DNA from: a phage
Sequence record: PZ445521.1
Strand: one strand, 5' to 3'
Length of the DNA: 64,000 nt
In this document: positions 6,324 to 43,528 of the stretch, one piece after another
Position numbering within the stretch: the first letter of the stretch is position 1
Layout: every line of letters starts with the position of its first letter
Program-made: the position numbers and the translations under genes
Notes under the pieces: generated by a model
The model's input: only the letters and a program-made list of their open reading frames with translations
Databases searched by the model: none
Told to the model about the DNA's origin: nothing

Positions 6324-6518
6324 TTACTTGAATTGTGCAATTCTTTTCTCTAGACATTCAGCATAAGATTTCATTGAGATGAACTGTGAAAGCAGCAGTT
6401 CTTGCTCAACTGCACTAACTGTTAGAAACTTTGCGCTTTCTAAAAATTTACTCAGTGCATTAATTTTGAGCATTAATTGATCGTATTCTTCTTTTACTCG
6501 TGCTTGATAACCTAACAT
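6324..6518 (-). CDS. hypothetical protein, 64 aa
   Basis: ORF track; between rIIB and denB. Confidence 0.5.
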   Translation of the reverse strand: MLGYQARVKEEYDQLMLKINALSKFLESAKFLTVSAVEQELLLSQFISMKSYAECLEKRIAQFK

Positions 6519-6546
6519 AATTTTCCTTAGTTAAGGGCCGAAGCCC

Positions 6547-7485
6547 TTATTTAAATTGTTCAGTAACGTCTTCAACTACTTCGTATTGGCAGGTACGCAT
6601 TTTAGCATCGTTGTAATCAATCGGAATTGATACTACATCACGCGGATGTACTTTAACTTTTACGACTCGGCTGGTTGAACTGCCAAAGTGACGAATATAA
6701 GATTTAGAACACACATGCAGACCACGAGAACAAGTTTGTGTATCATCGTCATTCACACGAGTACGTGGCATTTTAACTACTTTACCCGGACTGTTATCAA
6801 AGGTGTTTGAGTGACAGTCAAAGTAATTGCTGCGAACTACTTTCCAAGCATAGAAGTAACCATCTTCTGTAATTTCAATATCGTTTGCTACCAAGAAATC
6901 AAAGAGTCGAGATACCGCTTTTTGGCTTGGGTTTTCCAGCAGATTTTCCAAGAACGGAAAATAAAATTCAAAGTTTTCGCCTTTTTCCATCGAATCAAGA
7001 ATACGATCAACTAAACCAGACCGCAATTCAATATTTTGATAGAACAAGCTTCCACCTTCAATTCGAACATCGCCGGAAATATATTTTTCAACAGCGCGAC
7101 GAACATTAATTTTTTGTGCAGCTTCTTCCAGCCTATCCGCTACAAGCAGATTAAGAATTTCCTGGAAGTTTGAATGAGTATTAGGAGTTGCGTTATAAGT
7201 TACACCGTCAACAGTAATTGAAATGAATTTTTTAGATGCATTCCAAATAATGTCAGATTTAGCAACTGGAGCAATAACTGCATCGCTATTAACTTTAACT
7301 GTAATATCACCGCTAATAGTAACTTTAGAGCGTTTAGCTTCTTCAGCATTTTTCAAAACACGACGGATTGTGTCAACCGATACATCCTTCCAATAAGCTA
7401 ATTCCTGTTGGGTATAATTACCACTTGAATACAGTTTAACAATTTCAGCTTGTTCGTTTTTGGTCAGGCATTTAATATTGTACAT
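6547..7485 (-). CDS. rIIB: RIIB
   Basis: 312-aa ORF, same length as T4 rIIB; directly downstream of rIIA. Confidence 0.9.
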   Translation of the reverse strand: MYNIKCLTKNEQAEIVKLYSSGNYTQQELAYWKDVSVDTIRRVLKNAEEAKRSKVTISGDITVKVNSDAVIAPVAKSDIIWNASKKFISITVDGVTYNATPNTHSNFQEILNLLVADRLEEAAQKINVRRAVEKYISGDVRIEGGSLFYQNIELRSGLVDRILDSMEKGENFEFYFPFLENLLENPSQKAVSRLFDFLVANDIEITEDGYFYAWKVVRSNYFDCHSNTFDNSPGKVVKMPRTRVNDDDTQTCSRGLHVCSKSYIRHFGSSTSRVVKVKVHPRDVVSIPIDYNDAKMRTCQYEVVEDVTEQFK

Positions 7486-7496
7486 AATTTTCCTTA

Positions 7497-15316: not shown

Positions 15317-16000
15317 TTATCGTTTTGTTGGAAGAGATAGAGGATCGCACTCTTCCTCTGACGGAGCATCTTCAAGACCCATAGCATAGCGCAAAGCATA
15401 CTTCATCATCAGGATGTCTTTCGCACAGTCATGAATAGAATCATGCGCAACGAATCCATCTAAAGTTCCTTTTGGAAGAGGACACGTGGTCATATCACGA
15501 ACAAGGAGAAGTGCTTCAATTCTGGTACGAATATCACGCTGATTCCAAAATTTACAAGGTTCTAACTTAAATGTATCAAGCTCATTCTCGGAAACGCCGT
15601 TAAGACGTTGAATATCGCGAATGAGATCGACTAAAATTGGAAAATCAAAAGACATTCCACGGCACCAGCCTTGAGATTTCCAAGGATCGATATTATGCGC
15701 ATTGATGTAATCATTAAATTTTGCAATACCATCGATAGTGCTTACATCTTCATCTGATGGCGCAATATTTTTTCGAGCTTCAGGAGATTGATTCTTCCAC
15801 CATTCGATAGTGCTTTTAGTAAAAAGACGATGTCCTTTTTGGCTTTTTAAATCAAATTTGATTTTAATGCCACGTGAAACTAATTCATCAAATGTTTCAA
15901 CGACTTCTGGATTAGGGTCAAAAGCAATTACAGCCAAATCAATAACAGCTGCTTTTTCACCGCTTCCCATTGTTTCAAAATCTATAATAAAATCAAACAT
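15317..16000 (-). CDS. dexA: exonuclease A (DnaQ-like 3-prime-5-prime exonuclease)
   Basis: 227-aa ORF, same length as T4 DexA; N-terminal DFETMG exonuclease-type motif; synteny with dda. Confidence 0.85.
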   Translation of the reverse strand: MFDFIIDFETMGSGEKAAVIDLAVIAFDPNPEVVETFDELVSRGIKIKFDLKSQKGHRLFTKSTIEWWKNQSPEARKNIAPSDEDVSTIDGIAKFNDYINAHNIDPWKSQGWCRGMSFDFPILVDLIRDIQRLNGVSENELDTFKLEPCKFWNQRDIRTRIEALLLVRDMTTCPLPKGTLDGFVAHDSIHDCAKDILMMKYALRYAMGLEDAPSEEECDPLSLPTKR

Positions 16001-16275
16001 TAAATTTTCCTTGCTAAATCGCGAATTTGACCTACAGTATAATCTTGGATATAAACTTTATTAATAGGCTCATCAATAAATTTTGCCATAGATTCAATAT
16101 CTTTTTGTATCTCTTCAAGACTGTATACTATCTTTAAAGCTTTTTCGCGAATAGTAATATTTTCAGGACTAGAATTTTCCTCAATGACAGCTTTAACATT
16201 TGTCATAAGAGATTTAAACTGATGCAAACTTAATTCAATCATTAATAACCGCCTTATAAAGATGGCTAATTTCAC
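16000..16275 (-). CDS. hypothetical protein, 91 aa (dexA.1/.2-like)
   Basis: ORF track; paralogous to 16235-16495 (LEEIQKDIESMAKF ... DYTVGQIRDLAR versus LEEIERDLIALEFF ... DYVLGEISHLYK); true start may be internal. Confidence 0.45.
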   Translation of the reverse strand: MKLAIFIRRLLMIELSLHQFKSLMTNVKAVIEENSSPENITIREKALKIVYSLEEIQKDIESMAKFIDEPINKVYIQDYTVGQIRDLARKI

Positions 16276-19832: not shown

Positions 19833-20452
19833 TCAACTACCTCAATATCATAAACTTTAAATGTTCCAAATGAATCGTGTAATTTTTCTTTTGAAATAGA
19901 AGTTATTCTATACTTTCCAATTGGAATCATCCATTCTTGTTCACGCACAATCATCATTAAGTTATCAGTACGCTCTGAATCTAGCCCATCAGTATCTTCA
20001 TACGTGTACTTAAACTCAGTATTAGGAGAAGAAAGTATAATATCGCTGATATGGTCAGAATAATTAAAAGCTTTATTAGTTTTTAAGCGAAGTATTATTT
20101 TAGTAAAATATTCAGCGTAAGAAAAAGAACATGCTGTGAGCAAACTAGTAGTAAATGAATCTACTCTATTCGTTGAAAACACTTCTCCAACTTGTAAATC
20201 TTTAATAAGTTCTTCTGTTGATTTTGATATACCACGATATAACTGATAAGGTGATTTAGTTAAATGCTTTTTAATGATTTTATTCAACTGCCGATGAAGA
20301 GCTTCATTCTTTTTGGCTTCCATACATTGCCAAAGAACTGACTGCTCAAAGTCAGTAAATTTTTCACAGACCTTTTTATACATATCATATTGAAAATCGA
20401 CGCTTTCAGCTTTTATAGATAACTGTTCAACATCTGCAAGATTAATAATCAT
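19829..20452 (-). CDS. modB: ModB-like ADP-ribosyltransferase
   Basis: 207-aa ORF, same length as T4 ModB; 4-nt overlap with modA. Confidence 0.65.
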   Translation of the reverse strand: MIINLADVEQLSIKAESVDFQYDMYKKVCEKFTDFEQSVLWQCMEAKKNEALHRQLNKIIKKHLTKSPYQLYRGISKSTEELIKDLQVGEVFSTNRVDSFTTSLLTACSFSYAEYFTKIILRLKTNKAFNYSDHISDIILSSPNTEFKYTYEDTDGLDSERTDNLMMIVREQEWMIPIGKYRITSISKEKLHDSFGTFKVYDIEVVE

Positions 20453-20474
20453 GATAGCCTCCGTATACTTCAGA

Positions 20475-20510
20475 AGCTATCATATCATCGTTAGAAAGGA
20501 AAGTAAACAA
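20475..20510 (-). promoter_or_regulatory. early promoter (-35 TTTACT, -10 TATGAT)
   Basis: agtaaa 20502-20507, atcata 20479-20484, 17-bp spacer. Confidence 0.45.
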
Positions 20511-20519
20511 CTTTTTGAA

Positions 20520-20702
20520 TTATTTTGCCCAGGGAGCCCAGGGCGGAGGGTCAAGATGGTATGAAGCTAGTTCTTCTAGAAGAGCATCTGGGGCTTCAAT
20601 TCCATAATTCTGTAATACTATACGGTACTCTTTCTTATAATCACTGGAATCATTCTGGTTATTCGTAGAATGATTATCTTCTAACATCTCAAATAAATCC
20701 AT
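20520..20702 (-). CDS. hypothetical protein, 60 aa
   Basis: ORF track. Confidence 0.45.
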   Translation of the reverse strand: MDLFEMLEDNHSTNNQNDSSDYKKEYRIVLQNYGIEAPDALLEELASYHLDPPPWAPWAK

Positions 20703-20710
20703 ATTAATTC

Positions 20711-21181
20711 CTAGCGATAAAAACCAAATTGACGATTAGCTTCAATAATCTTTCTTTCTTCTTCGGACATTCTCCAGCGTAGTCCAACGTCAAAATGAGC
20801 CCAGACCATCTTAACAAATGCATTTATATCTTTAATATCTTCAATAATGAATGTTTTACTTTTAAAAGGCTGACTCGCTAATTTAACTTTATCATCTTCA
20901 AACAGGTCAAAAAGACCATATTCATGAGCTCTTTTATAGCCTTTAATAGTTAAAGCTTCAGAAGAAGAAAATGGTGAATCTGTATTCTGCAAAATATCTT
21001 CAGTATGCTTTATAATTAGAATAATATTTTCTGGATATTTTCTTTCTTTTATATCTTTAATTAAAATATCCGGATTTTCTGCTAAAGGAATAATTAATGA
21101 GCATTTTTTATCAAGTGTATTTACTGATTTACCTTCTTTAGACATAAATTCTATTGAATAATGTTTTGCTACTTCAATCAT
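20711..21181 (-). CDS. hypothetical protein, 156 aa
   Basis: ORF track. Confidence 0.5.
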
Positions 21182-21326
21182 GGGATTTCCTTTTGCCTAC
21201 TAATGGACCATCGGGAATTTTGTTTTCCTGGATATATTTCTCATTTTCTTCCATCATTTTACTGCCAATTTTAAGAAGCAAATCCAGTGCTTCATTTGCT
21301 TTAGCTTTAGCCTCTTCCAGCGTCAT
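21174..21326 (-). CDS. hypothetical protein, 50 aa
   Basis: Read from DNA: [50 protein letters not shown]; stop overlaps next start (CATGATTGA); below the track length cut-off. Confidence 0.35.
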
Positions 21327-21334
21327 ATCTTTGT

Positions 21335-21538
21335 TCACGATTTATCCCCATAGATGTCTCTCATCAATTTAAGCGCTGAGCGTTCTAATTTCTTTTCTTT
21401 CTCAGCACTAATCATTGATTTCATCCATTCTTCCGATTCGTTCTGCATTTCTTTATTTGCTTGTTCAACCCAACCATCATCAATGTACATTGAGTTTGGT
21501 CTATTGAACCATTCAAGAATCTTCTTGAGAGCTTTCAT
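21335..21538 (-). CDS. hypothetical protein, 67 aa (srh-like position)
   Basis: ORF track. Confidence 0.45.
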
Positions 21539-22010
21539 TTATTTTACCTAAAACAATAGTAGGAGCATTGTCAAATTTATGAATTTTTAGCAAATTTGGA
21601 TTTAAATTATTCCATAAAGAGGTAATAAAATATGATAGCGCACTTTCGTCCGTAATTATAAATTTATTTCCTTTATCTATTTTCCAATCATATATTGAAT
21701 CATATGAATAGAAGGATAACGGTTTATTATTATAATATGCTTCAGCAACATCAATATAGTTAGATTTAGTAAATGCTTGAATTGCCATAAATGGAGAATT
21801 TTGTACAGTTTCAATAATTCCGATCTTTTTAAGTTTTATTTCAACATCTTCTGGAATTGGCATTGAAATAAAATCTTCTACTAGATACATGTTATTGTCA
21901 TATCTTTTATCAATCATTACTGCTACGGTAATTGGAACATCCTTGACAAACGCCATACTAATGCTATTGATAGACATTTCAAACAAAATTGCTTCCATAA
22001 TTTTCCTCAA
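21513..22010 (-). CDS. hypothetical protein, 165 aa (mrh-like position)
   Basis: ORF track. Confidence 0.5.
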
Positions 22011-22348
22011 TCACAAGATGTAGATGAACAACTAGAATCACAAGAACTTCCACATGAATCGCCCGTCCATACATAAACAGGAACATTAGTATCATATGAA
22101 TCAGAACTAGACTGTGTTTTCTGTGTGTTAGATGATGTAGTAGGTACTGACCAGCGCCAAGGATTTTTATAATATTCTTGGGCTTCTTCATAAGTCATAG
22201 TAACTGCTTCTACTGTTCCATCTCCCATATAAACATATTCAACTACAGTTAAAGGAAGGTAGTCATTTGAAATAGGAACTACACCTTCCCCAGGAGTCGT
22301 AGAGAAAAAATCCGTAAAGAAACTTTTAAACCAGTTAAAGATAAACAT
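22007..22348 (-). CDS. hypothetical protein, 113 aa, Cys/Ser-rich C-terminus
   Basis: ORF track; C-terminal [18 protein letters not shown]. Confidence 0.5.
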
Positions 22349-22554
22349 TACAAAAAGCCTCTTTTGAATTCGACTTGCTTTTCACCATAATCATATCGAA
22401 TCTCTGCATTAAATTCGACAGAACCATCTGCGTACATCATAAATGAATGCACAACAACTTCTGTAGACCATGGTTGCAATTCATATTTCTTCATTACATG
22501 TCGTGAAATGATAATATCTAAATCTTCATTCGGTTTAATCCAACGATTTAACAT
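22348..22554 (-). CDS. hypothetical protein, 68 aa
   Basis: ORF track. Confidence 0.45.
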   Translation of the reverse strand: MLNRWIKPNEDLDIIISRHVMKKYELQPWSTEVVVHSFMMYADGSVEFNAEIRYDYGEKQVEFKRGFL

Positions 22555-22574
22555 AGTGCTCTCCTCTATAAGAT

Positions 22575-22612
22575 AATTCTATTATACCATACTCATTTTG
22601 GAAAGTAAACCG
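22575..22612 (-). promoter_or_regulatory. early promoter (-35 TTTACT, -10 TATAAT)
   Basis: agtaaa 22604-22609, attata 22581-22586, 17-bp spacer. Confidence 0.55.
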
Positions 22613-22620
22613 TTTAAATG

Positions 22621-22647
22621 AAAAAAAAAGGACTCCCGAAGGAGTCC
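22621..22647 (-). terminator. intrinsic terminator downstream of soc
   Basis: Stem ggactcc cgaa ggagtcc at 22630-22647, followed on the transcript by nine U. Confidence 0.6.
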
Positions 22648-22653
22648 TTGAAT

Positions 22654-22899
22654 TTATTCACCAGTTACTTTCCACAAATCTTCATTTGCAGCAATCCATT
22701 CAGTACGTTGATTTTCTTCATATACTGTAGAATATGCTGCTTTTTCTGAAGGGAATGTCTGGTAATGAGCTCCAGAAATTTTGTGAACGTCAGAATAAAG
22801 AGGGAAAGCTACGGAAATTTCCTTTCCTTCAATTTTCTTATTTCCATCTAATTTCTGCTCAAATGTTTTGATATTAACATAACCGCGAGTACTAGCCAT
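22654..22899 (-). CDS. soc: small outer capsid protein Soc
   Basis: 81-aa ORF recognised as T4 Soc; late promoter TATAAATA about 30 nt upstream. Confidence 0.85.
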   Translation of the reverse strand: MASTRGYVNIKTFEQKLDGNKKIEGKEISVAFPLYSDVHKISGAHYQTFPSEKAAYSTVYEENQRTEWIAANEDLWKVTGE

Positions 22900-22929
22900 G
22901 TAATTCTCCTTTTATTTAAATTACATGAT

Positions 22930-22937
22930 TATTTATA
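22930..22937 (-). promoter_or_regulatory. late promoter core TATAAATA
   Basis: Plus-strand tatttata at 22930-22937 is TATAAATA on the minus strand, upstream of soc. Confidence 0.5.
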
Positions 22938-22982
22938 ATAAATTCTCGCGGCTTTTAAGTCGTCGTTTAAATAAACGAGCTA

Positions 22983-23501
22983 TTAATAGCCTCGATCTTG
23001 ACGTGCGAAATTTTCGGCATTTTTCAGATAATAAAGTTTAAAGATTTCCTCAGCTGACATTCCAAGAGCAATAAATTTATTCATAAAAAAGTGAAATTGG
23101 TCAATCAGTTCAAATTTAATTTCAAGCTGATCTTCAGGAGATAAGTCTTGAATTTTCTTGGATTGCATTTCAGAATAACGTTTCTTCCAAGGTTTCCATA
23201 CGGCAGAAGCTTCTTTTTCACCATTACTCATACCACCAAGAGAAGTATATAGCTCGCGAGTTTCATCTGCGATATAATCGTCTTGGTTTCGCAGCCAAGC
23301 AAGAACTTCTCCTGCGGTTTCAAGTGAATCAGGATGACGATTTGTTTCTGGCTTATCATTAGCCAAACGAATCTGTAAAGACCGCTGCATATCAAGCATA
23401 ACCTGCAATGGGTCTTTTTCATCACCGAGAATATCCCAGTATTCATTTTGAGCTTTATCAACACCTTCGATCAAATGAGCGCATTCATTAAAGTGAGCCA
23501 T
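22983..23501 (-). CDS. 56: dCTPase/dUTPase gp56 (MazG-like)
   Basis: Track ORF 22983-23594 trimmed to MAHFNECAHL (AGGAAA Shine-Dalgarno), giving 172 aa against T4 gp56 171 aa. Confidence 0.8.
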   Translation of the reverse strand: MAHFNECAHLIEGVDKAQNEYWDILGDEKDPLQVMLDMQRSLQIRLANDKPETNRHPDSLETAGEVLAWLRNQDDYIADETRELYTSLGGMSNGEKEASAVWKPWKKRYSEMQSKKIQDLSPEDQLEIKFELIDQFHFFMNKFIALGMSAEEIFKLYYLKNAENFARQDRGY

Positions 23502-23529
23502 TATTTTTCCTTTCAATTCATGGGTTAGT

Positions 23530-23562
23530 AGATTAATTATACAATAAATATATAAAGCAATA
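23530..23562 (-). promoter_or_regulatory. middle promoter (MotA box TTGCTTTA, 11 bp, TATAAT)
   Basis: Plus-strand taaagcaa 23553-23560 and attata 23536-23541; upstream of gene 56. Confidence 0.55.
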
Positions 23563-23572
23563 AGGAGGACAT

Positions 23573-23773
23573 ATGGTACAAAAATTAATGGCACTTGTTG
23601 ATGCCATAAAAGGTAATAAGAAACGTATAGCTTTTACTATTTCTGCTATGGTAGGAATTTTACTCTGGAACTTTATTCTATCACCTGTTGCGATTGCACA
23701 TGGTATTAATATTCCAGTAGTTACTCTTGATACATTCGTAGATTTAGCATTTGCTTTAGTTGGGTTAATTTAA
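23573..23773 (+). CDS. small membrane protein, 66 aa (plus strand)
   Basis: AAGGAGGA Shine-Dalgarno 4-5 nt before ATG; two hydrophobic helices; stop overlaps primase stop; only well-supported plus-strand ORF in the window. Confidence 0.4.
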   Translation: MVQKLMALVDAIKGNKKRIAFTISAMVGILLWNFILSPVAIAHGINIPVVTLDTFVDLAFALVGLI

Positions 23774-24798
23774 ATCTTGGCATATTTAGATAGCCGCATT
23801 TTAGCCATCAACCCCTGGGCAATATTATTTTTCATATATTCCATAATTTGTTCAGTGGTTGCACCTTCCTTTCTAATCATATCATTAACATCTTTTGATT
23901 TCCAGGGAGATTTATCCCAAAACATAACCCTTTCTCCTGCATCAACTAATTTAGTCATTCGCTTAATAGTGTCAGGATGACGAGGTTCATTATCTAAAAC
24001 CCACACACGTCTATCTTTAAATGGAACAACTTCTAGGTCTAATTGACCACCCGTAATAGCTATACCATTTTCAATAAAAAGTGAATCTATAGGTCCTTCT
24101 AGAACATATACATCACCATCTTTAACTCGTTCTACTCCATAGATTTTTGTTGCCTCAGGATAAGCTTTGATGGTGATATATTTTTGAGGAGCATCTTTCT
24201 TTAATGCACGTCCTTGAAAAGACTCAGCTTTTCCATTAGCATTATAAATTGGAATAACAAGACGAGGCTCAGAAATTTCCTTTTTATATGTTCCCGGTGC
24301 TATACTATTAACTAATTTAGGCCATTCGGTTGTAAACCAAAGATATTTCCATTTATCCTTTGGAATACAACGAGCTTTTACGTATTTTATAATTGGATGG
24401 TCTTCCGCCAGTTTATCTAATCTAACACATGACGGAAGAGATTTAATTATTTTCTTCTCAGGTTGTTTAGGAAGTTCTTTAGGTTTTTCTACTGGACGAC
24501 TTTTACCTTTTTCTTTTCTTATTTCAAAGATATACTCACGATATAAATCAGGTTCAAACTCCTTTAAATATATTCCGATTGGTGCATGATAGTTACAGTT
24601 ATAACAATGAATATTTCCTTCATTATTATCGCCATAATACCATCCACGAGCTTTATTCTGGTCGGTTTTTGAATCTCCACAAACAGGGCATCTAAACCGT
24701 AATTTAAAAGTTGAACTATTATTTACTTGTGTGAATTTAGGTAAATGGGCTAATGCACGATACGCAAACTCATTATCAATCCAAGGTATTGATGACAT
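23770..24798 (-). CDS. 61: DNA primase gp61
   Basis: 342-aa ORF, same length as T4 gp61; zinc ribbon CPVCGDS ... CYNC; TOPRIM-like EGPIDS / LDNE. Confidence 0.9.
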   Translation of the reverse strand: MSSIPWIDNEFAYRALAHLPKFTQVNNSSTFKLRFRCPVCGDSKTDQNKARGWYYGDNNEGNIHCYNCNYHAPIGIYLKEFEPDLYREYIFEIRKEKGKSRPVEKPKELPKQPEKKIIKSLPSCVRLDKLAEDHPIIKYVKARCIPKDKWKYLWFTTEWPKLVNSIAPGTYKKEISEPRLVIPIYNANGKAESFQGRALKKDAPQKYITIKAYPEATKIYGVERVKDGDVYVLEGPIDSLFIENGIAITGGQLDLEVVPFKDRRVWVLDNEPRHPDTIKRMTKLVDAGERVMFWDKSPWKSKDVNDMIRKEGATTEQIMEYMKNNIAQGLMAKMRLSKYAKI

Positions 24799-24800
24799 TT

Positions 24801-24965
24801 TTACTCTTCTTTTTCTTTAGATTCCTCTTTTTTCTTTTTAGGAATCTGTTCAGGACCTTTATTTACTACAGCACCTGATGTTGTTCCAGTAGAGATATTT
24901 TCAGGATTACCACCTGAATCTCCAGCAACCATATCTTCTTTAATAAATTCTTTATATGTTTTCAT
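24801..24965 (-). CDS. hypothetical protein, 54 aa (61.1-like)
   Basis: Read from DNA: MKTYKEFIKEDMVAGDSGGNPENISTGTTSGAVVNKGPEQIPKKKKEESKEKEE; TAATATG junction with upstream gene. Confidence 0.5.
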   Translation of the reverse strand: MKTYKEFIKEDMVAGDSGGNPENISTGTTSGAVVNKGPEQIPKKKKEESKEKEE

Positions 24966-24966
24966 A

Positions 24967-25323
24967 TTAACCTCTATTCATAAAAGCATTAAAAATTTGG
25001 TCATCAATAGATGGCGCAGTAATATTTTCTGCATCATTTAGCAAATCATTAATTTCATCGGATAGCATAACACATGTACCTTTATTTCCTGTAATTGTTA
25101 CTGCACAATTACGAACGTTTTCTTTATCAAATTTTAGGTTAATATTTTCGTAGTGAAAATCCTTTAATGCCGAATATATCTTTAAAATGAAATTGTCTTT
25201 TACTACAATAAACCCAACCTCACTATTAAAACGCGGTTCATGGAAACTGTAATAAACCTTTTCATCTATAAAATCGTATGAAATTTTTTCCATTTTTAAA
25301 TATGAAAATTCAGAACTATACAT
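24967..25323 (-). CDS. hypothetical protein, 118 aa
   Basis: ORF track; C-terminus SIDDQIFNAFMNRG encoded by the duplicated junction cassette. Confidence 0.55.
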   Translation of the reverse strand: MYSSEFSYLKMEKISYDFIDEKVYYSFHEPRFNSEVGFIVVKDNFILKIYSALKDFHYENINLKFDKENVRNCAVTITGNKGTCVMLSDEINDLLNDAENITAPSIDDQIFNAFMNRG

Positions 25324-25324
25324 A

Positions 25325-25957
25325 TTAACCTTTATTCATAAAAGCATTAAAAATTTGATCGTCAATAGAAACTTTTACTTTAGGCTGTTCTTCAAACGGT
25401 AATTCATATCCACATATTACAATTTTGTGATCGATACCAAAATACACAGAAGCAATATTATTAATATTATTTTCAGTGAAATCTAAATCAACATCAATAT
25501 CTTTTTGACTAACGCTCAAAGGATAATTAATACGAATAATTCGATTATCTTTAACAAAGATTCCACCGACATACTCTGTGCTGCGTTTAAAGTTTACACG
25601 TTTCCTAAATGAAAAATATTCAGGTTCTTTATGGGCTCGACTCATAGGGCTTAAAGTGTATTCCGAATATGAAATATCAAATCCTACACCTTCAATATGA
25701 GCCAAAGTATCATGATTAAACCAATTATAATCGTATGCCAAATCCATTAAATTGTAATATGTGAAAGGCACCGGATTAACATCATATGTTGTACCTTTAA
25801 AATCTGCCCAGGCAACGATTTCGTTATCTTTAACAATTACAAAAATTGTGCCAATAAGATATCCACGGTTATTTTCATCAGGTGTTATATTATAACATTG
25901 TGCATCAGGAAATTTACCGTATTTAAACGGTGGATTTTTGTGCATATAATAAATCAT
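25325..25957 (-). CDS. hypothetical protein, 210 aa (61.2-like position)
   Basis: ORF track; length close to T4 61.2; C-terminus SIDDQIFNAFMNKG. Confidence 0.6.
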   Translation of the reverse strand: MIYYMHKNPPFKYGKFPDAQCYNITPDENNRGYLIGTIFVIVKDNEIVAWADFKGTTYDVNPVPFTYYNLMDLAYDYNWFNHDTLAHIEGVGFDISYSEYTLSPMSRAHKEPEYFSFRKRVNFKRSTEYVGGIFVKDNRIIRINYPLSVSQKDIDVDLDFTENNINNIASVYFGIDHKIVICGYELPFEEQPKVKVSIDDQIFNAFMNKG

Positions 25958-25958
25958 A

Positions 25959-26252
25959 TTATTCGCCTGTGATTTCGGTTACGATATTTTTGTTATTAAA
26001 GTTTTTATCGCAATACAGAACATAATTATACTGCATTACACCACCAGACTTAAGTTGTTTTTGCACTTCAGCTTTCATTTCAGGACGATCGCGCTCAACG
26101 ATATTCATAATATCCGCTTCAATTTGAGTTTCAACTTCAGTCTGATCTGCAGTCATAGACCATTCACACAAATCTTTATCATATCCTGCCATAGCAGGCT
26201 GAGCAGCACAAGAAGCCAAAGTAAAAATTGTAGCAAAAATAAATTTTTTCAT
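25959..26252 (-). CDS. sp: Spackle periplasmic protein
   Basis: 97-aa ORF with signal peptide, recognised as T4 Sp. Confidence 0.8.
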   Translation of the reverse strand: MKKFIFATIFTLASCAAQPAMAGYDKDLCEWSMTADQTEVETQIEADIMNIVERDRPEMKAEVQKQLKSGGVMQYNYVLYCDKNFNNKNIVTEITGE

Positions 26253-26312
26253 GATAATCTCCTCAGTAGTTTATGTTTATATAGTATCTCAATTTCCAAC
26301 AAAAGTAAACAG

Positions 26313-26570
26313 CTATTTTAAAACTTCTGCGTAATCACATGTTACAAACTGTTTCTCTAGCTTAACGATTTTACGAAAATACCTTTTATACTGACGAATC
26401 TGCCTCTTCGTAGGACGTACAGCAAACTTAATAAATTCCACTCGACCAAATGGAGGACTTTCTTCTGCTGGAATATCTAGCACCAATTCCCACGTATCTG
26501 CAATAAGTGCTTTGAATTGAGTATTTTTCCTGACGTTATACGGAGTAGGTTTAAATAAAACAATATGCAT
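26313..26570 (-). CDS. hypothetical basic protein, 85 aa (61.4-like position)
   Basis: ORF track; immediately upstream-adjacent to dmd. Confidence 0.55.
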   Translation of the reverse strand: MHIVLFKPTPYNVRKNTQFKALIADTWELVLDIPAEESPPFGRVEFIKFAVRPTKRQIRQYKRYFRKIVKLEKQFVTCDYAEVLK

Positions 26571-26571
26571 A

Positions 26572-26754
26572 TTATCCTCGGCAATCTACTTCACATACTT
26601 TCTTGTCATCAATGAAAGCTTTAACTAATGCTTTATTAACTTCAGCATATTGAGTAGTAGCCCATTGAACGTCATCTTTCATCATTGTGGTTTCTTTAGT
26701 AAACATGCTTTCATTCTTAAACCACCCCATAAAAACTACCTTTACCAATTCCAT
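26572..26754 (-). CDS. dmd: Dmd antitoxin (inhibitor of host RnlA/LsoA)
   Basis: 60-aa ORF MELVKVVFMGWFKNESMF..., recognised as T4 Dmd; early promoter upstream. Confidence 0.8.
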   Translation of the reverse strand: MELVKVVFMGWFKNESMFTKETTMMKDDVQWATTQYAEVNKALVKAFIDDKKVCEVDCRG

Positions 26755-26777
26755 AACAATCTCCTCATTTAACCAAC

Positions 26778-26815
26778 AAGACTACTATACCATAGTCTCG
26801 TCAGCTTGTAAACTA
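26778..26815 (-). promoter_or_regulatory. early promoter (-35 TTTACA, -10 TATAGT)
   Basis: tgtaaa 26807-26812, actata 26784-26789, 17-bp spacer; lies just after gene 41 stop. Confidence 0.55.
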
Positions 26816-28240
26816 AAATTTTAATTCATTCGCCAAAGCATCTAACTGAGCTCGAGTGGATTCATTTCTTTGATAGCGATTCTGCTCAGCCTGAATCTGT
26901 TGTGAACCTGCTACTTCACTCACTTCAGTTGGAGTAGAATCTTGTTCGATTTCTACCCATTTCTGATTTCCCTTTTGAACACCCATCAAAAACTTATTCC
27001 ATTTATTTTTATCACCATATCGTGATTTGATTTGCTTAATGAGTTGTTGTTCAGCAGCTGCTAACTCCTCGGTTTCAATGACCGCAAGCATAAAATCGGC
27101 TGTTGCTGGAAGACCGGCAGATTCTGCAATATCGCTCATGTTAACATCGGAAGAGTCCCAAGCTTGTTTACCAACCTGTGCTGCAGTCCAAAGAACAGTT
27201 TCGGTTTCAACAGCAAGAGCACGCAATTCCTCTGCAATAGCTTTAACAGTTGTGTAACTATTTTCTGAATAAACTCTAATGCGGCAAGATTTACAAATAC
27301 CCAGATAGTCGACAATAATGATTGTTGGAACAAAATTCTTCTTAAGCTTCAATTCGTTTAAAAGTGATCGAAATGTATTAGCATCTGCTCCACCAGTAGG
27401 ATACTGTTTAACGATTAAACGACCGAGAGTAGATTTCTCGCGCCATTTTTCCATTTTTCCTTTATACTCAGCGTAAGAAATATGCCCATCATCAATGTCA
27501 TCAAGAGAAACATCAAGCATGTTAGCGTCAATACGCTTAGCACAGACTTCTTCTGCCATTTCCATGGAAATGTAAAGAACATTATGTCCGAGCTGTAAAT
27601 AATCTGCCGCTAATGAACACAATCCTAATGATTTACCAACGTTAACGCCAGCCATTAAAACGTTCAGTGTTCCAGTTTCAGCTCCGCCTTTAGTAATTTT
27701 GTTTAGAATTCTGAGTTTAAATGGAACCTTACGAGCTTTATTCATATAAGATAGCCAACGCGCTTCATAGTCATCCATCCAATCATGACCAACGTAGCTA
27801 TCAAATGAAATTGATAATGCTTGGCGCATGATGTCAGGAATAGCACCTACATCTGGCATTTTCTTATTTCGTTTTTCCGGAGGAAGCTCAGCATTAGTTT
27901 GAATTTCGATTATTTTAGACGTAGCATTAAACATCGCCCTTTGCTGAACATATTTTTCTGTTTCTTTTACTAACCAGCTGTGGTCTTCTGGAGAATCAGC
28001 CAGTTTTGAAATAAGTGTTTTTACACCAGAATATTCTGTTTCAGTAAATGAACTATTTTCTAATGCAACATTTAATGCATTAATAGATGGAACGCTATGA
28101 TACTCATTAACATGAGATTTAATTAATTTGAATGTATTTTTAGCTGGACCACTTTCAAAATATTCTGAATCCATATATGGCCAAACTTTTGAAAAATAAG
28201 CTTGATCAAATATAAGATGAGAAAGAATAATTTCTACCAC
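26813..28240 (-). CDS. 41: replicative helicase gp41 (DnaB-like)
   Basis: 475-aa ORF, same length as T4 gp41; Walker A GVNVGKS. Confidence 0.92.
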   Translation of the reverse strand: MVEIILSHLIFDQAYFSKVWPYMDSEYFESGPAKNTFKLIKSHVNEYHSVPSINALNVALENSSFTETEYSGVKTLISKLADSPEDHSWLVKETEKYVQQRAMFNATSKIIEIQTNAELPPEKRNKKMPDVGAIPDIMRQALSISFDSYVGHDWMDDYEARWLSYMNKARKVPFKLRILNKITKGGAETGTLNVLMAGVNVGKSLGLCSLAADYLQLGHNVLYISMEMAEEVCAKRIDANMLDVSLDDIDDGHISYAEYKGKMEKWREKSTLGRLIVKQYPTGGADANTFRSLLNELKLKKNFVPTIIIVDYLGICKSCRIRVYSENSYTTVKAIAEELRALAVETETVLWTAAQVGKQAWDSSDVNMSDIAESAGLPATADFMLAVIETEELAAAEQQLIKQIKSRYGDKNKWNKFLMGVQKGNQKWVEIEQDSTPTEVSEVAGSQQIQAEQNRYQRNESTRAQLDALANELKF

Positions 28241-28249
28241 ACTTACTCC

Positions 28250-28612
28250 TTAAAAGAATTTAAACTTTTTCTTTGACCTTTTATTAAATGCATCTTGTAG
28301 TTGCATTGTAATACATTTTTCTACATGAGGAGCTAACTCAGCTTTTCTTTCTTGGTCAAGAACAGCAAAGTCCATTACAACCTTTCCATCAACCCAATCC
28401 AGTTTTGTTACATACACTATATGTGTAGAACCATCTTCTAGTTTAATGACAATCTCCTGGATAACATTTTCCATGGCAGATTTAATTATCTTAAGAGACT
28501 CATTAAAAAGACGTTCTTTTCTTTCTTCTTCCCCCTCCGAAGAGGGGGATTCATCGATAATTTCTAGATCTAAATCTAAATCATCTTTATTCATTAAATT
28601 CTTCCATATCAC
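28250..28612 (-). CDS. gp40-like protein, 120 aa
   Basis: Position between 41 and uvsX as for T4 gene 40; start may be internal (overlaps uvsX 3-prime end). Confidence 0.55.
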   Translation of the reverse strand: MIWKNLMNKDDLDLDLEIIDESPSSEGEEERKERLFNESLKIIKSAMENVIQEIVIKLEDGSTHIVYVTKLDWVDGKVVMDFAVLDQERKAELAPHVEKCITMQLQDAFNKRSKKKFKFF

Positions 28613-29768
28613 TTAACTGTTCGAGGTCAGTTTCTAAATCAGCTGCTGATTTACTTTTACTTTCTGGAGATTTAAATTTTTCAACCTTTGAGTTAATCAA
28701 TTCATCAACTTCAGCTTCAACAATTTCATTACTATCAATAGCACCTAACTGATAAGCACGTTTAATAGCATCTCGGAATGGTTGATGCTTAAATAAAGGA
28801 CCCCAGAATGTAGTGCAGTTGGTATCTTTTGCACGCCAAGATTTTTCTTCGCGAATCATCTCGCCGGTTTCTTCATCAAGAAATTCACGAGCATACCAGC
28901 CATTTTTAGGTTTTACCACGAATCCTAATTCTAGAGCCATATCTAACAATCCAGAATAAGGATCGATACCACCGTCAAATTTAACATCAATAAAGAATTT
29001 ACTTTTTTCTTTAACGGTACGAGATTTTTCTACATTTAGAACAAATTGATACCCCTGAAGATCAGAACCATCTTTAATCTGACGCTTACCGATAATGAAT
29101 ACGGTATCAGCCGAATACATTACGCCTGTACCACCTGTCATCACGGTTTTACTAAACATTTCAATTGTTTCAATTGTATGATTAACCGCAACACATGGAA
29201 TATTTTTAATGCTAAAGTAAGGAGTAACAATACGGAATAATGACTTCAGTGATTTAGCACGAGTCATATCTGCCACAGATTTTTCATTCAAGGCATCTTC
29301 CGTTTCTTTCTTAGAAGCCATATTACCGATTGAGTCGATGAATACAATAACTTTTTCACCGCGCTCAATAGCTTCAAGCTGATTCACCATATCAATTTTC
29401 AGCTGTTCAACTGACTGGATTGGCGTATGAATTACTCGTTCCGGGTCAACTCCCATGGATCGTAAATAAGCTGGAGTAATACCAAATTCACTATCATAGA
29501 ATAGACAAACCGCGTCAGGATATTTGTTCAAATATGCCGCAACCATAGTCAAAGACATATTTGATTTAAAGTGTTTAGAAGGCCCTGCGAAAATAGTTAA
29601 ACCAGACTGCATACCGCCATCAATCGCGCCAGAAATAGCAATATTAAGCATTGGGATTTTTGTACGGATTACATCCTTTTCATTAAAGAATTTAGATGTA
29701 GTCAGTTCAGCAGTCATTTTAGAAGTGGAAGCTTTAATCAAACGGGATTTTAAATCTGCAATAGACAT
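28587..29768 (-). CDS. uvsX: UvsX recombinase (RecA-like)
   Basis: 393-aa ORF with RecA-type Walker A region (GPSKHFKS); T4 UvsX is 391 aa. Confidence 0.92.
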   Translation of the reverse strand: MSIADLKSRLIKASTSKMTAELTTSKFFNEKDVIRTKIPMLNIAISGAIDGGMQSGLTIFAGPSKHFKSNMSLTMVAAYLNKYPDAVCLFYDSEFGITPAYLRSMGVDPERVIHTPIQSVEQLKIDMVNQLEAIERGEKVIVFIDSIGNMASKKETEDALNEKSVADMTRAKSLKSLFRIVTPYFSIKNIPCVAVNHTIETIEMFSKTVMTGGTGVMYSADTVFIIGKRQIKDGSDLQGYQFVLNVEKSRTVKEKSKFFIDVKFDGGIDPYSGLLDMALELGFVVKPKNGWYAREFLDEETGEMIREEKSWRAKDTNCTTFWGPLFKHQPFRDAIKRAYQLGAIDSNEIVEAEVDELINSKVEKFKSPESKSKSAADLETDLEQLSDMEEFNE

Positions 29769-29845
29769 TCATTTTTTCCATAGGCATCATTATATTTTCC
29801 TCACTGGTTAAAGATAGAGTAATTATAACACAATAAATTTAGGCA

Positions 29846-30694
29846 TTAATCAACTGCTATTGGATGAATAGCATTAAACTTATGAAATGCTTCTGATTTT
29901 TCTTTACGTGAAACACACATGCGAAGAACCTTTAATGGCTCGTCTTCTTCACCCAACGATTTTCGTTTTTCAATATTCGATGTTTTCCAACGAGCTTGCT
30001 CTGGAAACTCTCTATTGATTTGCTCAAGCGCTCTATTATGTTTAGAATTACTACGAATTGAACTGCACCCGCCAGGAGCTTGTGCTTTTCCAGATACAAC
30101 CAGATATTTGAACAAGGCCAAATGCGGATAACCTTGATTAATTAAATTGAGAAATGCATACATATCTTCGCACAAATCAATTTTTCCATACCCAATTTGT
30201 TCTGTCGTAAGTTTTCCAAGGTCATACCATGTATTCGTGAATCCATATGAATTTTCACGATAATTACCCCAAGATGAAGTAATTTTAAAAATTGGTAGAC
30301 GAGCATGGCCATGATAATACCCGCAATCCATGGCATCTTCGACGTATTGAATCAATTCATAGAACTGTTCACGGGTTAATTGATTGACTTTATCTACACA
30401 ACGACGGTCATCTCTTTTTCGCATTGAACTCATACGAATAGTAGTATCATCGTCAATCATCCAGATTCGTTGACCTGCATACATATCAGTAATTGCTTTA
30501 CGAGTACCAGCAATTCCATTTACATCGTCAGGAATAGTTATAATTTTAGCTCTAGACCCATAGGCATCATAATAAGCTTTTTCTTCATGTTCACGCACTA
30601 CAATATGGGGTTCATAATTAGTCGGAAACATATCAAGGGCAGAAACTGCCCCGACACGCTGATAACTTGGAATTACGAATTGAATCATTTCCAC
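29846..30694 (-). CDS. GT-A/GT2-like glycosyltransferase (DxD), 282 aa, in the beta-gt slot
   Basis: N-terminal FVIPSYQR strand and IWMIDDDTT DxD motif; sits between uvsX and 42 where T4 has the 351-aa beta-gt. Confidence 0.6.
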   Translation of the reverse strand: MEMIQFVIPSYQRVGAVSALDMFPTNYEPHIVVREHEEKAYYDAYGSRAKIITIPDDVNGIAGTRKAITDMYAGQRIWMIDDDTTIRMSSMRKRDDRRCVDKVNQLTREQFYELIQYVEDAMDCGYYHGHARLPIFKITSSWGNYRENSYGFTNTWYDLGKLTTEQIGYGKIDLCEDMYAFLNLINQGYPHLALFKYLVVSGKAQAPGGCSSIRSNSKHNRALEQINREFPEQARWKTSNIEKRKSLGEEDEPLKVLRMCVSRKEKSEAFHKFNAIHPIAVD

Positions 30695-31425
30695 TCACCT
30701 TTATAGTCTTTTTTCACAATATGAGTTTCGCCAGTATTCCACCAATGATCAACCAAGTAAAAATGACGAGAATATACATGAAGACTTCCAACATTCCATA
30801 TAATAGAACCTGCTTTATACTGACGAGTTGAATCGCCTGCATTCAAATCAGATACTAATTTATCTAATACGTATTTTTGCCATGCATAATCATTACGGAA
30901 TCCGAAGACCACGTCATTTGAGCGCATGCTTACTACTGCATTGACTTTCTTATCACGAATCAGGTACTGTACTGTATTAGTACACATGAAATCTGACATA
31001 CCATCTTTATTGTAGTCAAATTGCATGGATGGACGAGTATAAATCATGATACCACGCCGAGAATCAGGATTTTGACCAAGTTCAGCTAAACACATATCAT
31101 ACTGGGCATAGTTATCTTCTGACCAAATAGCCCAACCATAATTCGAGTTAATTTCGCCTTTAGAAGATGCTACCTGCTGCCAAATCTTTGGTGTTTCACC
31201 TGGAATATCTTTAACAAACAAGCTCTTAGATTTATACCATTCAAGTTCGCGCTGAATGTATTCATCATTAAGAGCACCAAAAATAAACGGTTCATCTGCT
31301 ACAAATGATGCGCCAATAATTTCAATAGTTTTAACACCAGTTTTATCAACTACGAAATCTTTTTCTTTTAATGCAAGCCCCAAATGAAGACGGATTTCTT
31401 CAACTGTCATAGAGTCACTAATCAT
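30685..31425 (-). CDS. 42: dCMP hydroxymethylase gp42
   Basis: 246-aa ORF, same length as T4 gp42; thymidylate-synthase-like sequence. Confidence 0.92.
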   Translation of the reverse strand: MISDSMTVEEIRLHLGLALKEKDFVVDKTGVKTIEIIGASFVADEPFIFGALNDEYIQRELEWYKSKSLFVKDIPGETPKIWQQVASSKGEINSNYGWAIWSEDNYAQYDMCLAELGQNPDSRRGIMIYTRPSMQFDYNKDGMSDFMCTNTVQYLIRDKKVNAVVSMRSNDVVFGFRNDYAWQKYVLDKLVSDLNAGDSTRQYKAGSIIWNVGSLHVYSRHFYLVDHWWNTGETHIVKKDYKGEWK

Positions 31426-31432
31426 TTAAACC

Positions 31433-31582
31433 TCAATTGATACATTCATATTTAACTTGTAACAGTAATAAACCCCAACCTAAAATAATAGTTGGAATCA
31501 TAAGAGGAACCGTTACACTATAGTATATACTTATTATAATCATCAAGATTAAAAGCAACACTGTTATAATTTTGCTTTTCAT
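31433..31582 (-). CDS. small membrane protein, 49 aa
   Basis: Read from DNA: MKSKIITVLLLILMIIISIYYSVTVPLMIPTIILGWGLLLLQVKYECIN; ATGA overlap with imm stop. Confidence 0.4.
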   Translation of the reverse strand: MKSKIITVLLLILMIIISIYYSVTVPLMIPTIILGWGLLLLQVKYECIN

Positions 31583-31830
31583 TCCTTATCTCTGATGATA
31601 ATTACCTGATTTGGTTGTGCAGACTTTTTAGTTTCACCCGCAATTGACCAAATAAATGTAATAAACCAACCAATAATTGACCAGTTAAACAGTAAAGATG
31701 TGAAAAAGATTCCTACTGTCGATTTTGACCCACGCATCAAAGCAATAAACCATGGAAGCATGTATATAATAATAGCCAACACACCTGAAACTAAAACCAT
31801 AAAAATTGAACCTGCTACTAAAGTTTCCAT
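31579..31830 (-). CDS. imm: Imm superinfection immunity membrane protein
   Basis: 83-aa membrane ORF, same length as T4 Imm; synteny between 42 and 43. Confidence 0.8.
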   Translation of the reverse strand: METLVAGSIFMVLVSGVLAIIIYMLPWFIALMRGSKSTVGIFFTSLLFNWSIIGWFITFIWSIAGETKKSAQPNQVIIIRDKE

Positions 31831-38759: not shown

Positions 38760-38948
38760 TTAGTCATAATAATCAGTAACAGTCCAAGCTTCATTTCTAT
38801 TGGACATTATTTTTGTATATTCTGCTTTAAATGCATTCCTAAGCATAGATTCAGTAACTATATGCTCTTCATTAGAAAAATTATTTCTCAGAATATATCG
38901 TTTTATTTCAGGAATAGTTAATAGATGTTGTCCAGTTGAATATTCCAT
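38760..38948 (-). CDS. hypothetical protein, 62 aa (45.2-like)
   Basis: ORF track; synteny. Confidence 0.5.
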   Translation of the reverse strand: MEYSTGQHLLTIPEIKRYILRNNFSNEEHIVTESMLRNAFKAEYTKIMSNRNEAWTVTDYYD

Positions 38949-39003
38949 GTTTTTCCTCCACAGAGATTATACTCTAATAAATTAAAGCATAATCTCTTAT
39001 AAA

Positions 39004-40686
39004 TTAAACCATTACAGTAAATCGACCAACTTTCTTCATTTGAAGATGCTGACCATATTCTTGCGGGTCATGGTCTTTATGCGAAATTATAAAAACATTA
39101 GTGTTTTTCATTGAATTTATAATATTAGCTACACCTTTAATACCTTCGGCGTCAAATGACCCATCAAACACTTCATCGAGTATTAATGTACTAATACTAA
39201 CACCAGATACAATAGAAGCAATATCACGCCAAGTAAATAAAAGAGCAATATCAATTCTTGCCTTTTCACCTTCACTAAATGAAGCATAACTAAAATCTTC
39301 ACGACCACGGGATTTAATTGTCTCATTAAATTCTTCATCTAATGTAAACACATAATCCGCTTCCATTATTTTAAGATAATGGTTAATCTGCTTATTAAAT
39401 AATGGAATGTACTTTTTAATAATAGCACCTTTAATACCAGAATCTTTGAGCATATCAGTCAAAATTCCTCTGTGGTATTTTTCCATTACTAAATTAGTTT
39501 TTGTCTTAACAATTTTATCAAGTTCTTCTTGAAGCAGTGCTATTTCATCAGCATGGTCAATAAACTCAGAAGATGCTTTTTCTATAGCCGCTTTAACCTT
39601 TTTAGCTTTATCTACCGTCGTGATTAGAGATTGCTTTTTATTGCGAATATCATTTGCCAACGACTGTTGGGTTTTAATATTATCTCGGTATTCATCAACA
39701 AGAACTTTTAAATTATCACGGTGTGTTGAAAGCTGTTCAAACGAATGCGTACATTCAGAAACTTTATCTTTAATTTTAGAAACAACTTTATCACCGGAAC
39801 TTAATTGTGACAAACAGGTTGGACATAATCCACCTTCGTGATACATATTAATGACTTTATTATATGAGTCAATTTTTGATTTAATTAAAACTGCTTCTTG
39901 ACCGATTTTATTAAATGCATCAGTCGGGTCTTCATCCAAAACAATATTAACTAATCTTTCATTAGCTTCTTCTATTTCCGATTTTAGCGTTCTAGCTTCT
40001 TTTGCCAAATCATCGTACATATTTTGCAGACGAGTAAGGTTGTCACCCGTTAATTTTTTCTGGCGTTCAACGTTATCATTATATATTTTAATTTGTTGGA
40101 TAATACTATCTTTTTTAACATCAAGCACTTGGTTCTGCGAATTTAATTCACGTATTAGTGCTTTATTAAGCTTATCCATTTCAGCTAATGTTCCTACCTC
40201 GAGCAGGTCTTCCACAAGCTTTCTTCGCGCAGGGGTCGACAAACCCATGAAAGGGGTATACCCTGCTGTACCAAGGACAACAATCTGCTTGAAACTGGCA
40301 TATGACATTCCGATAAGCTGTTCAAATTCTGCTTGGAAATCTTTACTGCTGGCAGATTCATTAAGACGCGTACCGTTAACGGTGATTTCGAAAACGTTTG
40401 GTTTTTGTCCTCTTTTGATATAGTACTTTTTCTCATCATATTCCATCCACAGTTCAACTAAAAGTTCTTTCTTATTTGTGCTGTTTATTAATTGACCTTT
40501 CTTTACATCGCGAAATGGCTTGCCAAAAAGCCCAAATGTGATGGCTTCTAGCATAGTAGACTTACCACCGCCATTTCGTCCAGTAATAAGAGTTTTTTGA
40601 ACCTTATCTAATTGAATGTCAATAGGATTTCCACCTACTGACATTATATTTTGATACCTAACTCGATTTAGTTTAAAATTCTTCAC
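39004..40686 (-). CDS. 46: recombination nuclease subunit gp46 (Rad50/SbcC-like)
   Basis: 560-aa ORF, same length as T4 gp46; Walker A GRNGGGKST; coiled-coil middle. Confidence 0.92.
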   Translation of the reverse strand: MKNFKLNRVRYQNIMSVGGNPIDIQLDKVQKTLITGRNGGGKSTMLEAITFGLFGKPFRDVKKGQLINSTNKKELLVELWMEYDEKKYYIKRGQKPNVFEITVNGTRLNESASSKDFQAEFEQLIGMSYASFKQIVVLGTAGYTPFMGLSTPARRKLVEDLLEVGTLAEMDKLNKALIRELNSQNQVLDVKKDSIIQQIKIYNDNVERQKKLTGDNLTRLQNMYDDLAKEARTLKSEIEEANERLVNIVLDEDPTDAFNKIGQEAVLIKSKIDSYNKVINMYHEGGLCPTCLSQLSSGDKVVSKIKDKVSECTHSFEQLSTHRDNLKVLVDEYRDNIKTQQSLANDIRNKKQSLITTVDKAKKVKAAIEKASSEFIDHADEIALLQEELDKIVKTKTNLVMEKYHRGILTDMLKDSGIKGAIIKKYIPLFNKQINHYLKIMEADYVFTLDEEFNETIKSRGREDFSYASFSEGEKARIDIALLFTWRDIASIVSGVSISTLILDEVFDGSFDAEGIKGVANIINSMKNTNVFIISHKDHDPQEYGQHLQMKKVGRFTVMV

Positions 40687-42325: not shown

Positions 42326-43528
42326 TTATTTTGTAATAATGTCAAACTGTTCTTTAAAGCAGAAGCTTGAATCTTGATGCTGATACAAAAATTCATATGC
42401 TTTTTCTCGCTCACGGTCATAAAGAGCTCGGTCAGATGACAGTTCTTTAATACGCTCGAATGTTGATTCCATGTCATTTTCATCAAACCAAATGATACCG
42501 CTATCATGCGAGGTCAAAGGAGTATTATCAACACGGAATTTTAAATTTTCGCCAGTAGATTTCCAAAATACCGGAATTGTTCCACATGCACCAAGCTCGA
42601 GATGAGTATATTCTAAAGAGCGCTGTAGATATTTTTTATCCAACTTACTCAACTGATAACCAAATCCGGATTTACTCATACGTTCAAGCATTTCGCTATT
42701 TACATAACGATCGAGAATTTGCGTTGGTAAATTAGGAGCAATTTTAATTTGGTCTACTTGATGAAGACGATAATACTCGTATGGAATTCCTTTTTCTTTA
42801 ATAGGAATGAACGCTGGAGAACGTTCCAGACCTTCCATAATAGTACTTAGTCCTGCAGGTTTAAGATGTTTTTCATGAAAATCAAACATCTGATAAAAAC
42901 CTTTCCATGTAGTCGTACGACCAATCCAACGATTGATATTCATGTTAATTTCAGAAACATCTTTCCAGTAGGTTGACCGAACCTTCGCAATATCCATAGG
43001 AGGCTGAAAGTTATATACTGTCGGTGCTTCTTCAATATCATCAAACAGAGAAACTGTTTCAGGATACCATTCTTTCATCAGAACTTTATTAAAATCACCA
43101 TTATCAGAATGGCTAAAAATAACATCAGCTCGACGAACAGTTTCTTCTAATCCCAAATTTCGGCGCAAAGAAAGAGAAGAATGGTCATGTTGATAAACTA
43201 CAACACGAACAGAAGGTTTAATGTTATCAATAATTTTTTTATAGTTATTAATAGTGTCTTCTTCAACCGAAGTAGCAGGAACTGAATTGATAATTAGAAT
43301 ATCACAATCATTTACCAGCTTAAGTGTTTTATCGTATTCTTTTGCCAATAAAACCGGAATTGAAAATGATTTATAATCATGCGCACAGTTACGAGTAAAT
43401 GATTTATCTTTGGCATAAACCAAAGTTACTTCATGACCATTTTTAATAAACCAATCACGTTGCTCAAGAGAAAATTTAGTTACACCGCAACCTTCAAGAC
43501 CTCGAGCCATAAAAATACATACTTTCAT
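42326..43528 (-). CDS. agt: alpha-glucosyltransferase
   Basis: 400-aa ORF, same length as T4 alpha-gt; sequence recognised. Confidence 0.88.
   Translation of the reverse strand: MKVCIFMARGLEGCGVTKFSLEQRDWFIKNGHEVTLVYAKDKSFTRNCAHDYKSFSIPVLLAKEYDKTLKLVNDCDILIINSVPATSVEEDTINNYKKIIDNIKPSVRVVVYQHDHSSLSLRRNLGLEETVRRADVIFSHSDNGDFNKVLMKEWYPETVSLFDDIEEAPTVYNFQPPMDIAKVRSTYWKDVSEINMNINRWIGRTTTWKGFYQMFDFHEKHLKPAGLSTIMEGLERSPAFIPIKEKGIPYEYYRLHQVDQIKIAPNLPTQILDRYVNSEMLERMSKSGFGYQLSKLDKKYLQRSLEYTHLELGACGTIPVFWKSTGENLKFRVDNTPLTSHDSGIIWFDENDMESTFERIKELSSDRALYDREREKAYEFLYQHQDSSFCFKEQFDIITK

Follow-up and report, generated by a model that had tools for sequence, protein, structure and literature searches.

A beta-glucosyl-HMC-alpha-glucosyltransferase gene of the T2/T6 type in the beta-gt position of a T4-like phage

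The window analysed here is a 64-kb stretch of phage DNA (PZ445521.1) which carries, between uvsX and gene 42, an uninterrupted open reading frame on the minus strand (29846..30694) that would encode 282 aa if it were initiated at a GTG codon. A first description of this DNA, made from its letters alone (the sequence-only reading), had placed at this position a DxD-bearing GT-A glycosyltransferase unlike T4 beta-gt, and had pointed out that alpha-gt and dCMP hydroxymethylase were both present. The slot is bounded as it described, by the two uvsX domain families on one side and the thymidylate synthase fold on the other, and genes for both partner enzymes lie in the window. The genes of interest and the junction between two of them are as follows.

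28587..29768, minus strand: uvsX recombinase, the downstream neighbour that bounds the slot (PF21134 and PF00154)
29846..30688, minus strand: ba-gt, coding sequence for beta-glucosyl-HMC-alpha-glucosyltransferase (also ggt or TAGT); open reading frame annotated in phages JK38, T2, QOTSP and RB33, assigned by identity to T2, PF20691 and PHROG 842
30685..30688, minus strand: ATGA overlap of the gene 42 stop codon and the ba-gt start codon, read from the sequence
30685..31425, minus strand: gene 42, dCMP hydroxymethylase, which makes the hmdCMP precursor (PF00303, thymidylate synthase fold; annotated in JK38; 100% identical to the QOTSP protein)
42326..43528, minus strand: alpha-gt, DNA alpha-glucosyltransferase, whose product alpha-glucosyl-hmC is the ba-gt acceptor (PF11440, E 1.8e-237)
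22983..23501, minus strand: gene 56, dCTP pyrophosphatase, which belongs to the same pathway and excludes unmodified C from phage DNA (annotated in JK38, positions 15487-16005 of that record)

Translation of ba-gt almost certainly begins with the ATG at 30688, for a product of 280 aa ending at a TAA stop codon (29846-29848). A GTG start at 30694 was dropped in favour of this ATG because of the ATGA overlap, an AGGTGA Shine-Dalgarno-like sequence 6 nt upstream of the ATG, and the annotation of relatives, in which an 843-nt coding sequence begins at the same ATG (JK38, T2, QOTSP and RB33). The earlier figure of 282 aa arose because the longest open reading frame was taken; the frame is indeed open throughout, and it is the length of the protein that has to be corrected. 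The ATGA junction is also found in T2 and T6, and the overlap suggests that translation of gene 42 and ba-gt is coupled. Judged by its conservation, ba-gt is a real gene and not a chance open reading frame: it is 100% identical at the nucleotide level in two database phages, and megablast recovered it at full length with at least 90% nucleotide identity in at least 475 phage records. A scan of positions 29600-31700 for promoters and terminators returned counts equal to the shuffle expectation and was uninformative. One of the terminator-like elements in that scan, a GC-rich hairpin (GGGGCAG-TTT-CTGCCCT) with a T-rich tract at 30636-30652 on the minus strand, sits in the 5'-terminal part of the ba-gt coding sequence; such elements are as numerous as expected after shuffling. 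On the other side of gene 42, between it and imm, is a 49-codon open reading frame (31433-31582, minus strand) which is annotated in JK38 ('gp57'), QOTSP and RB33 ('42.1') and is without annotation in the T4 reference, though T4 DNA is about 96% identical there.

The identity of the gene, its family and fold, and the presence of its pathway partners were established directly in this work. Over 25 kb around ba-gt the window matches Shigella phage JK38 (MK962755.1) with 100% identity; in this Tequatrovirus, which came from sewage and was isolated on E. coli BL21, the gene is annotated as beta-glucosyl-HMC-alpha-glucosyl-transferase. Window coordinates were obtained by adding 7496 to those of the JK38 record. 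The linear JK38 record begins in rIIA, and positions 1-7496 of the window lie ahead of its base 1; the genome copy from which the window was taken therefore seems to be circularly permuted or to have another starting point. Of its 280 residues the ba-gt protein shares 277 with the enzyme of phage T2, and it is about 99% identical to those of T6 (NC_054907) and RB33, so that the suggestion of a T2/T6-type diglucosyl modification in the sequence-only reading was correct. It matches PHROG 842, which bears the same enzyme name, with an E value of 2.4e-89, and the Pfam family PF20691 (TET-associated glycosyltransferase, TAGT) with 38.4 bits against a gathering cut-off of 27.5, residues 6-209 aligning with profile positions 3-205 of 205. 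In a tblastn search the gene was found in 689 records, among them versions 60-80% identical in T4-like phages of Klebsiella, Enterobacter and Salmonella, and an exhaustive HMMER search gave 334 cluster representatives at E<=1e-3. The T2 and T6 enzymes have the same length, the same slot between uvsX and gene 42, the same ATGA junction and the same partners, alpha-gt and gp42; the T2 protein differs by point substitutions only (H11, D24 and S251, where the window has R11, N24 and P251). The original cloning and first description of the ba-gt gene are reportedly those of Winkler and Rüger (Nucleic Acids Res 1993).

The slot was compared with that of T4 by a blastn search of T4 positions 20000-30000 against the window, from which the borders of the following segment were taken.

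29757..30702, no strand assigned: 946-bp segment without DNA homology to T4, which replaces a 1941-bp T4 segment containing segA and beta-gt (blastn and T4 annotation)

The flanks of this segment are 94-96% identical to T4 DNA. T4 beta-gt, which occupies the same genomic slot, also transfers glucose from UDP-glucose to hmC-containing DNA and also forms a beta linkage, but it has a GT-B fold, where ba-gt is GT-A, and it takes bare hmC as acceptor and makes a monoglucoside. It is also accompanied by the homing endonuclease gene segA, which is absent from the window; tblastn searches of the window with T4 segA and segF gave chance matches only (E 0.6 or higher). A relationship between ba-gt and T4 beta-gt was ruled out, as the sequence-only reading had anticipated: the best BLASTP alignment has an E value of 2.2 over 8 residues, and the ba-gt protein has no match to PF09198, the T4 beta-gt family, at E<=1. 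No homologue of T4 beta-gt was found elsewhere in the 64-kb window (best tblastn E value 1.3). A relationship with the candidate arabinosyltransferase of RB69, ORF003c, was likewise ruled out (BLASTP E value 1.1; probability of 0.2% in hhalign with a profile of 65 sequences).

Both of the motifs on which the glycosyltransferase assignment had first been based, FVIPSYQR and IWMIDDDTT, are present, at residues 4-11 and 75-83 of the 280-aa protein. These and a third position are located as follows.

30656..30679, minus strand: FVIPSYQR (residues 4-11), strand beta1 and the loop after it (motif position; strand at residues 3-7 in the model; R11 invariant)
30446..30454, minus strand: DDD (D79-D81), the DxD motif, directly after the strand formed by residues 74-78 (conservation, model and GT-A neighbours)
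30164..30166, minus strand: D175, in CEDMY, about 95 residues past the DxD motif, a candidate catalytic base by analogy (invariant in 65 sequences)

In an alignment of 65 homologues taken from the 334 representatives, R11, D80, D175, G186 and G207 are invariant, and I6, P7, R63, D79, D81, G206, R212 and P229 are conserved in at least 90% of sequences. An AlphaFold2 model built on this alignment has a pLDDT of 93.8 and a pTM of 0.91, consists of one Rossmann-like alpha/beta/alpha domain and resembles solved GT-A, GT2-like transferases: the best Foldseek matches in the PDB are the WrtF fucosyltransferase, the E. coli K4 chondroitin polymerase (K4CP) and the S. aureus teichoic-acid GlcNAc transferases TarS and TarP, with a probability of 1.00 and TM scores of about 0.5. 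These enzymes share the fold over about 250 columns, with DxD after the central beta-strand, but their sequence identity to ba-gt is just 9-15%, their acceptors are teichoic acids or glycans where that of ba-gt is DNA-bound glucose, and they are much larger, ba-gt being without their extra domains. The model, the structural matches and the conservation of the aspartates together confirm the earlier claim of a DxD-bearing GT-A enzyme.

In GT-A enzymes the DxD motif binds a divalent metal and the diphosphate of the UDP-sugar, and its standard position is after a core beta-strand. We infer by analogy that the DDD of ba-gt (residues 79-81) holds the divalent metal and the UDP-sugar diphosphate; D175 is likely to be the catalytic base. 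These roles rest on analogy because a sequence search of the PDB with ba-gt gave chance matches only, with E values above 1. GT2-like enzymes are expected to invert, and ba-gt is probably a small, inverting, GT2-like enzyme of the GT-A fold, a mechanism which fits the formation of a beta linkage from UDP-alpha-glucose. The T6 TAGT has been modelled as a GT-A fold and placed as sister to GT2, whereas T4 alpha-GT and beta-GT are GT-B enzymes (PMC13216743). The 65 aligned members have in common the conserved positions R11, DDD, D175, GG and R212. The ba-gt pathway departs from that of the TET-associated family in two respects: it contains no TET/JBP dioxygenase, the hydroxymethyl group being added by gp42 at the nucleotide level, and the glucose is added not to the base but to a sugar that the DNA already bears.

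In the pathway that these genes would form, gp56 and gp42 would supply hmdCTP, from which phage DNA would be synthesised with 5-hydroxymethylcytosine; alpha-gt would add an alpha-linked glucose to about three quarters of the hmC; and ba-gt would move a second glucose from UDP-glucose onto the first in a beta-1,6 linkage, the predicted product being alpha-gentiobiosyl-hmC. What is known of the chemistry of the DNA and of the effect of deleting the gene comes from the work of other groups, done with enzymes identical or orthologous to this one. T2 and T6 carry both alpha-gt and ba-gt, and their second glucose is beta-1,6 linked, yielding gentiobiosyl-hmC; the levels given for it are about 5% (T2) and about 72% (T6), and each of the two phages has about 25% bare hmC (PMC6024577; PMC13216743; bioRxiv 10.64898/2026.02.25.707755). 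The extent of second glucosylation thus varies among close phages, and in some phages of the Durham collection the ratio is 1:2:2 (PMC13390438). A ba-gt deletion mutant of T6, described as having alpha-glucosyl-hmC only (~75%), is more sensitive to the Brig1 glycosylase (PMC11078745), and in T6 with g-gt deleted the DNA becomes a substrate of the BapA glucosyl hydrolase (bioRxiv 10.64898/2026.02.25.707755).

The closest measured case is phage QOTSP (vB_Eco_QOTSP), in which HPLC/MS found about 1/3 5-hmdC and about 2/3 alpha-5-gentiobiosyl-methyl-dC (PMC13390438), with alpha-glucosyl-mdC at background and no beta-glucosyl form (PMC13390438, Durham collection). The ba-gt gene of QOTSP is 100% nucleotide-identical to that of the window, its alpha-gt and gp42 proteins are identical at 400/400 and 246/246 residues, and over the surrounding 20 kb the two match at 98-99% identity. 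The Durham phages with the different ratio of 1:2:2 form a group for which a Dam-like gene is a marker (PMC13390438); T4 dam methyltransferase has no tblastn match in the window at E<=1. Because its ba-gt, alpha-gt and gp42 are identical to those of QOTSP and no dam homologue lies in the window, the DNA of JK38 is expected to be QOTSP-like, that is, T6-like. For the DNA of the window phage we would expect, by analogy with QOTSP, about one-third bare 5hmC, about two-thirds gentiobiosyl-hmC and little monoglucosyl-hmC. The position of dam in T4, between gene 56 and gene 61 (window 22983-24798), holds in JK38 an annotated 201-nt plus-strand open reading frame. QOTSP has beside gene 46 an opposite-strand gene for a homing endonuclease that the window lacks (at about 38945-39018); in blastn some 790 bp of QOTSP are left unmatched there between two blocks.

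We are highly confident that the gene is a T2/T6-type beta-glucosyl-HMC-alpha-glucosyltransferase which makes alpha-gentiobiosyl-hmC by beta-1,6 glucosylation of alpha-glucosyl-hmC, and no evidence contradicting a T2/T6-type enzyme was found in this analysis. The presence of the gene is no guarantee of high activity, however, because T2, whose protein is 99% identical, has only about 5% gentiobiosyl-hmC and laboratory T6 records carry lesions in ba-gt. The enzyme of the window phage might by the same token be inactive or hypomorphic, leaving the DNA T2-like, mostly monoglucosylated and with a few per cent of gentiobiosyl-hmC. We regard this as improbable, since the window allele keeps every residue that is invariant in the family, including R11, which is H in T2, and is the same allele as that of QOTSP with its two-thirds gentiobiosyl-hmC, the alpha-gt and gp42 proteins being identical as well.

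It is very improbable that the sugar transferred by ba-gt is another one (arabinose, for example, as in RB69-type phages) or that the linkage differs, so that the DNA would be modified unlike that of T2 and T6. In favour of this reading, the Pfam TAGT family is a broad one, with donors and acceptors that are thought to vary among its members, the score of ba-gt to its model is just 38 bits, and solitary TAGTs with unknown products have been reported (PMC13216743). The protein nevertheless shares 99% identity with that of T2 and has nothing in common with RB69 ORF003c by sequence or profile comparison, and QOTSP, whose DNA has gentiobiosyl-hmC, has the identical enzyme; the sugar other than glucose that the sequence-only reading had allowed for is thus not borne out. 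Equally slight is the chance that ba-gt is a first-step beta-glucosyltransferase acting on bare 5hmC, a functional analogue of T4 beta-gt whose exact position it occupies and whose name some records give it ('b-gt' or 'putative beta-glucosyltransferase'), since it has no homology to T4 beta-gt, phages with ba-gt leave about 1/3 of hmC unglucosylated and have no beta-glucosyl-mdC (PMC13390438), and the T6 deletion is described as alpha-glucosyl-hmC only, at ~75% (PMC11078745).

As a second-step glucosyltransferase of the T2/T6 type, ba-gt is already known: it is a textbook T2/T6 gene, the one that T4-like coliphages usually have in this slot, and its presence is the majority state in Tequatrovirus. 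In the vast majority of phages that encode glycosyltransferases a TAGT accompanies either alpha-GT or beta-GT, and the pair of alpha-GT and beta-GT is found in only 6 of 753 such genomes, those of T4 and its close relatives (PMC13216743). Because of this rarity the arrangement of alpha-gt with ba-gt is the norm and T4 the exception, and what had been noted from the sequence is correct but, given the usual occupant of the slot, ordinary.

The gene matters to the phage because it decides whether hydroxymethylcytosine bears one glucose or gentiobiose, and with this the phage's sensitivity to the defences of its host changes. Gentiobiosyl-hmC withstands the BapA glucosyl hydrolase and, in vitro, the Brig1 glycosylase (PMC11078745; bioRxiv 10.64898/2026.02.25.707755; PMC13216743), GmrSD-type enzymes still attack it (PMC13216743; PMC11078745; bioRxiv 10.64898/2026.02.25.707755), and the third of hmC that stays unglucosylated exposes such phages to the 5hmC glycosylase Brig3 (bioRxiv 10.64898/2026.02.25.707755). 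The DNA modification state of JK38 is predictable from its sequence, and so, therefore, is its likely restriction profile; this is of practical value for the window and implies no new biology.

A comparison of the T2 and T6 alleles, differences on which no discussion was found in the papers cited here, bears on the gene family and does not make the window itself unusual. In T2 (LC348380) the enzyme has R11H, and Arg11 (codon 11, window 30656-30658) is invariant in the 65 aligned family members. The exact T2 5' sequence is confined to eight records, seven of T2 and one of its relative SV76, and the next-closest class includes RB33, which has R11. The substitution might underlie the ~5% of gentiobiosyl-hmC in T2; if R11H were hypomorphic, it would explain why T2 and T6 (~5% against ~72%) differ despite near-identical enzymes. 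It is a tentative and rather doubtful idea, drawn from these alleles, that the window carries the fully active wild form of the enzyme and that the classical laboratory phages carry impaired ones.

Both T6 records that were checked carry ba-gt lesions, different from each other, though T6 is the classical gentiobiosyl-rich phage; the window keeps both the Q10 codon and the DDD motif intact, whereas each of the two records lacks one. The lesions may be stock-specific mutations, sequencing errors or tolerated variants. In NC_054907/AP018814 a 3-nt in-frame deletion at residues 79-81 turns the conserved DDD into DD. In MH550421 a CAG to TAG change makes an amber codon at position 10, unique among 518 matching records, because of which the ggt coding sequence of that record is annotated from Met20 (261 aa, without strand beta1).
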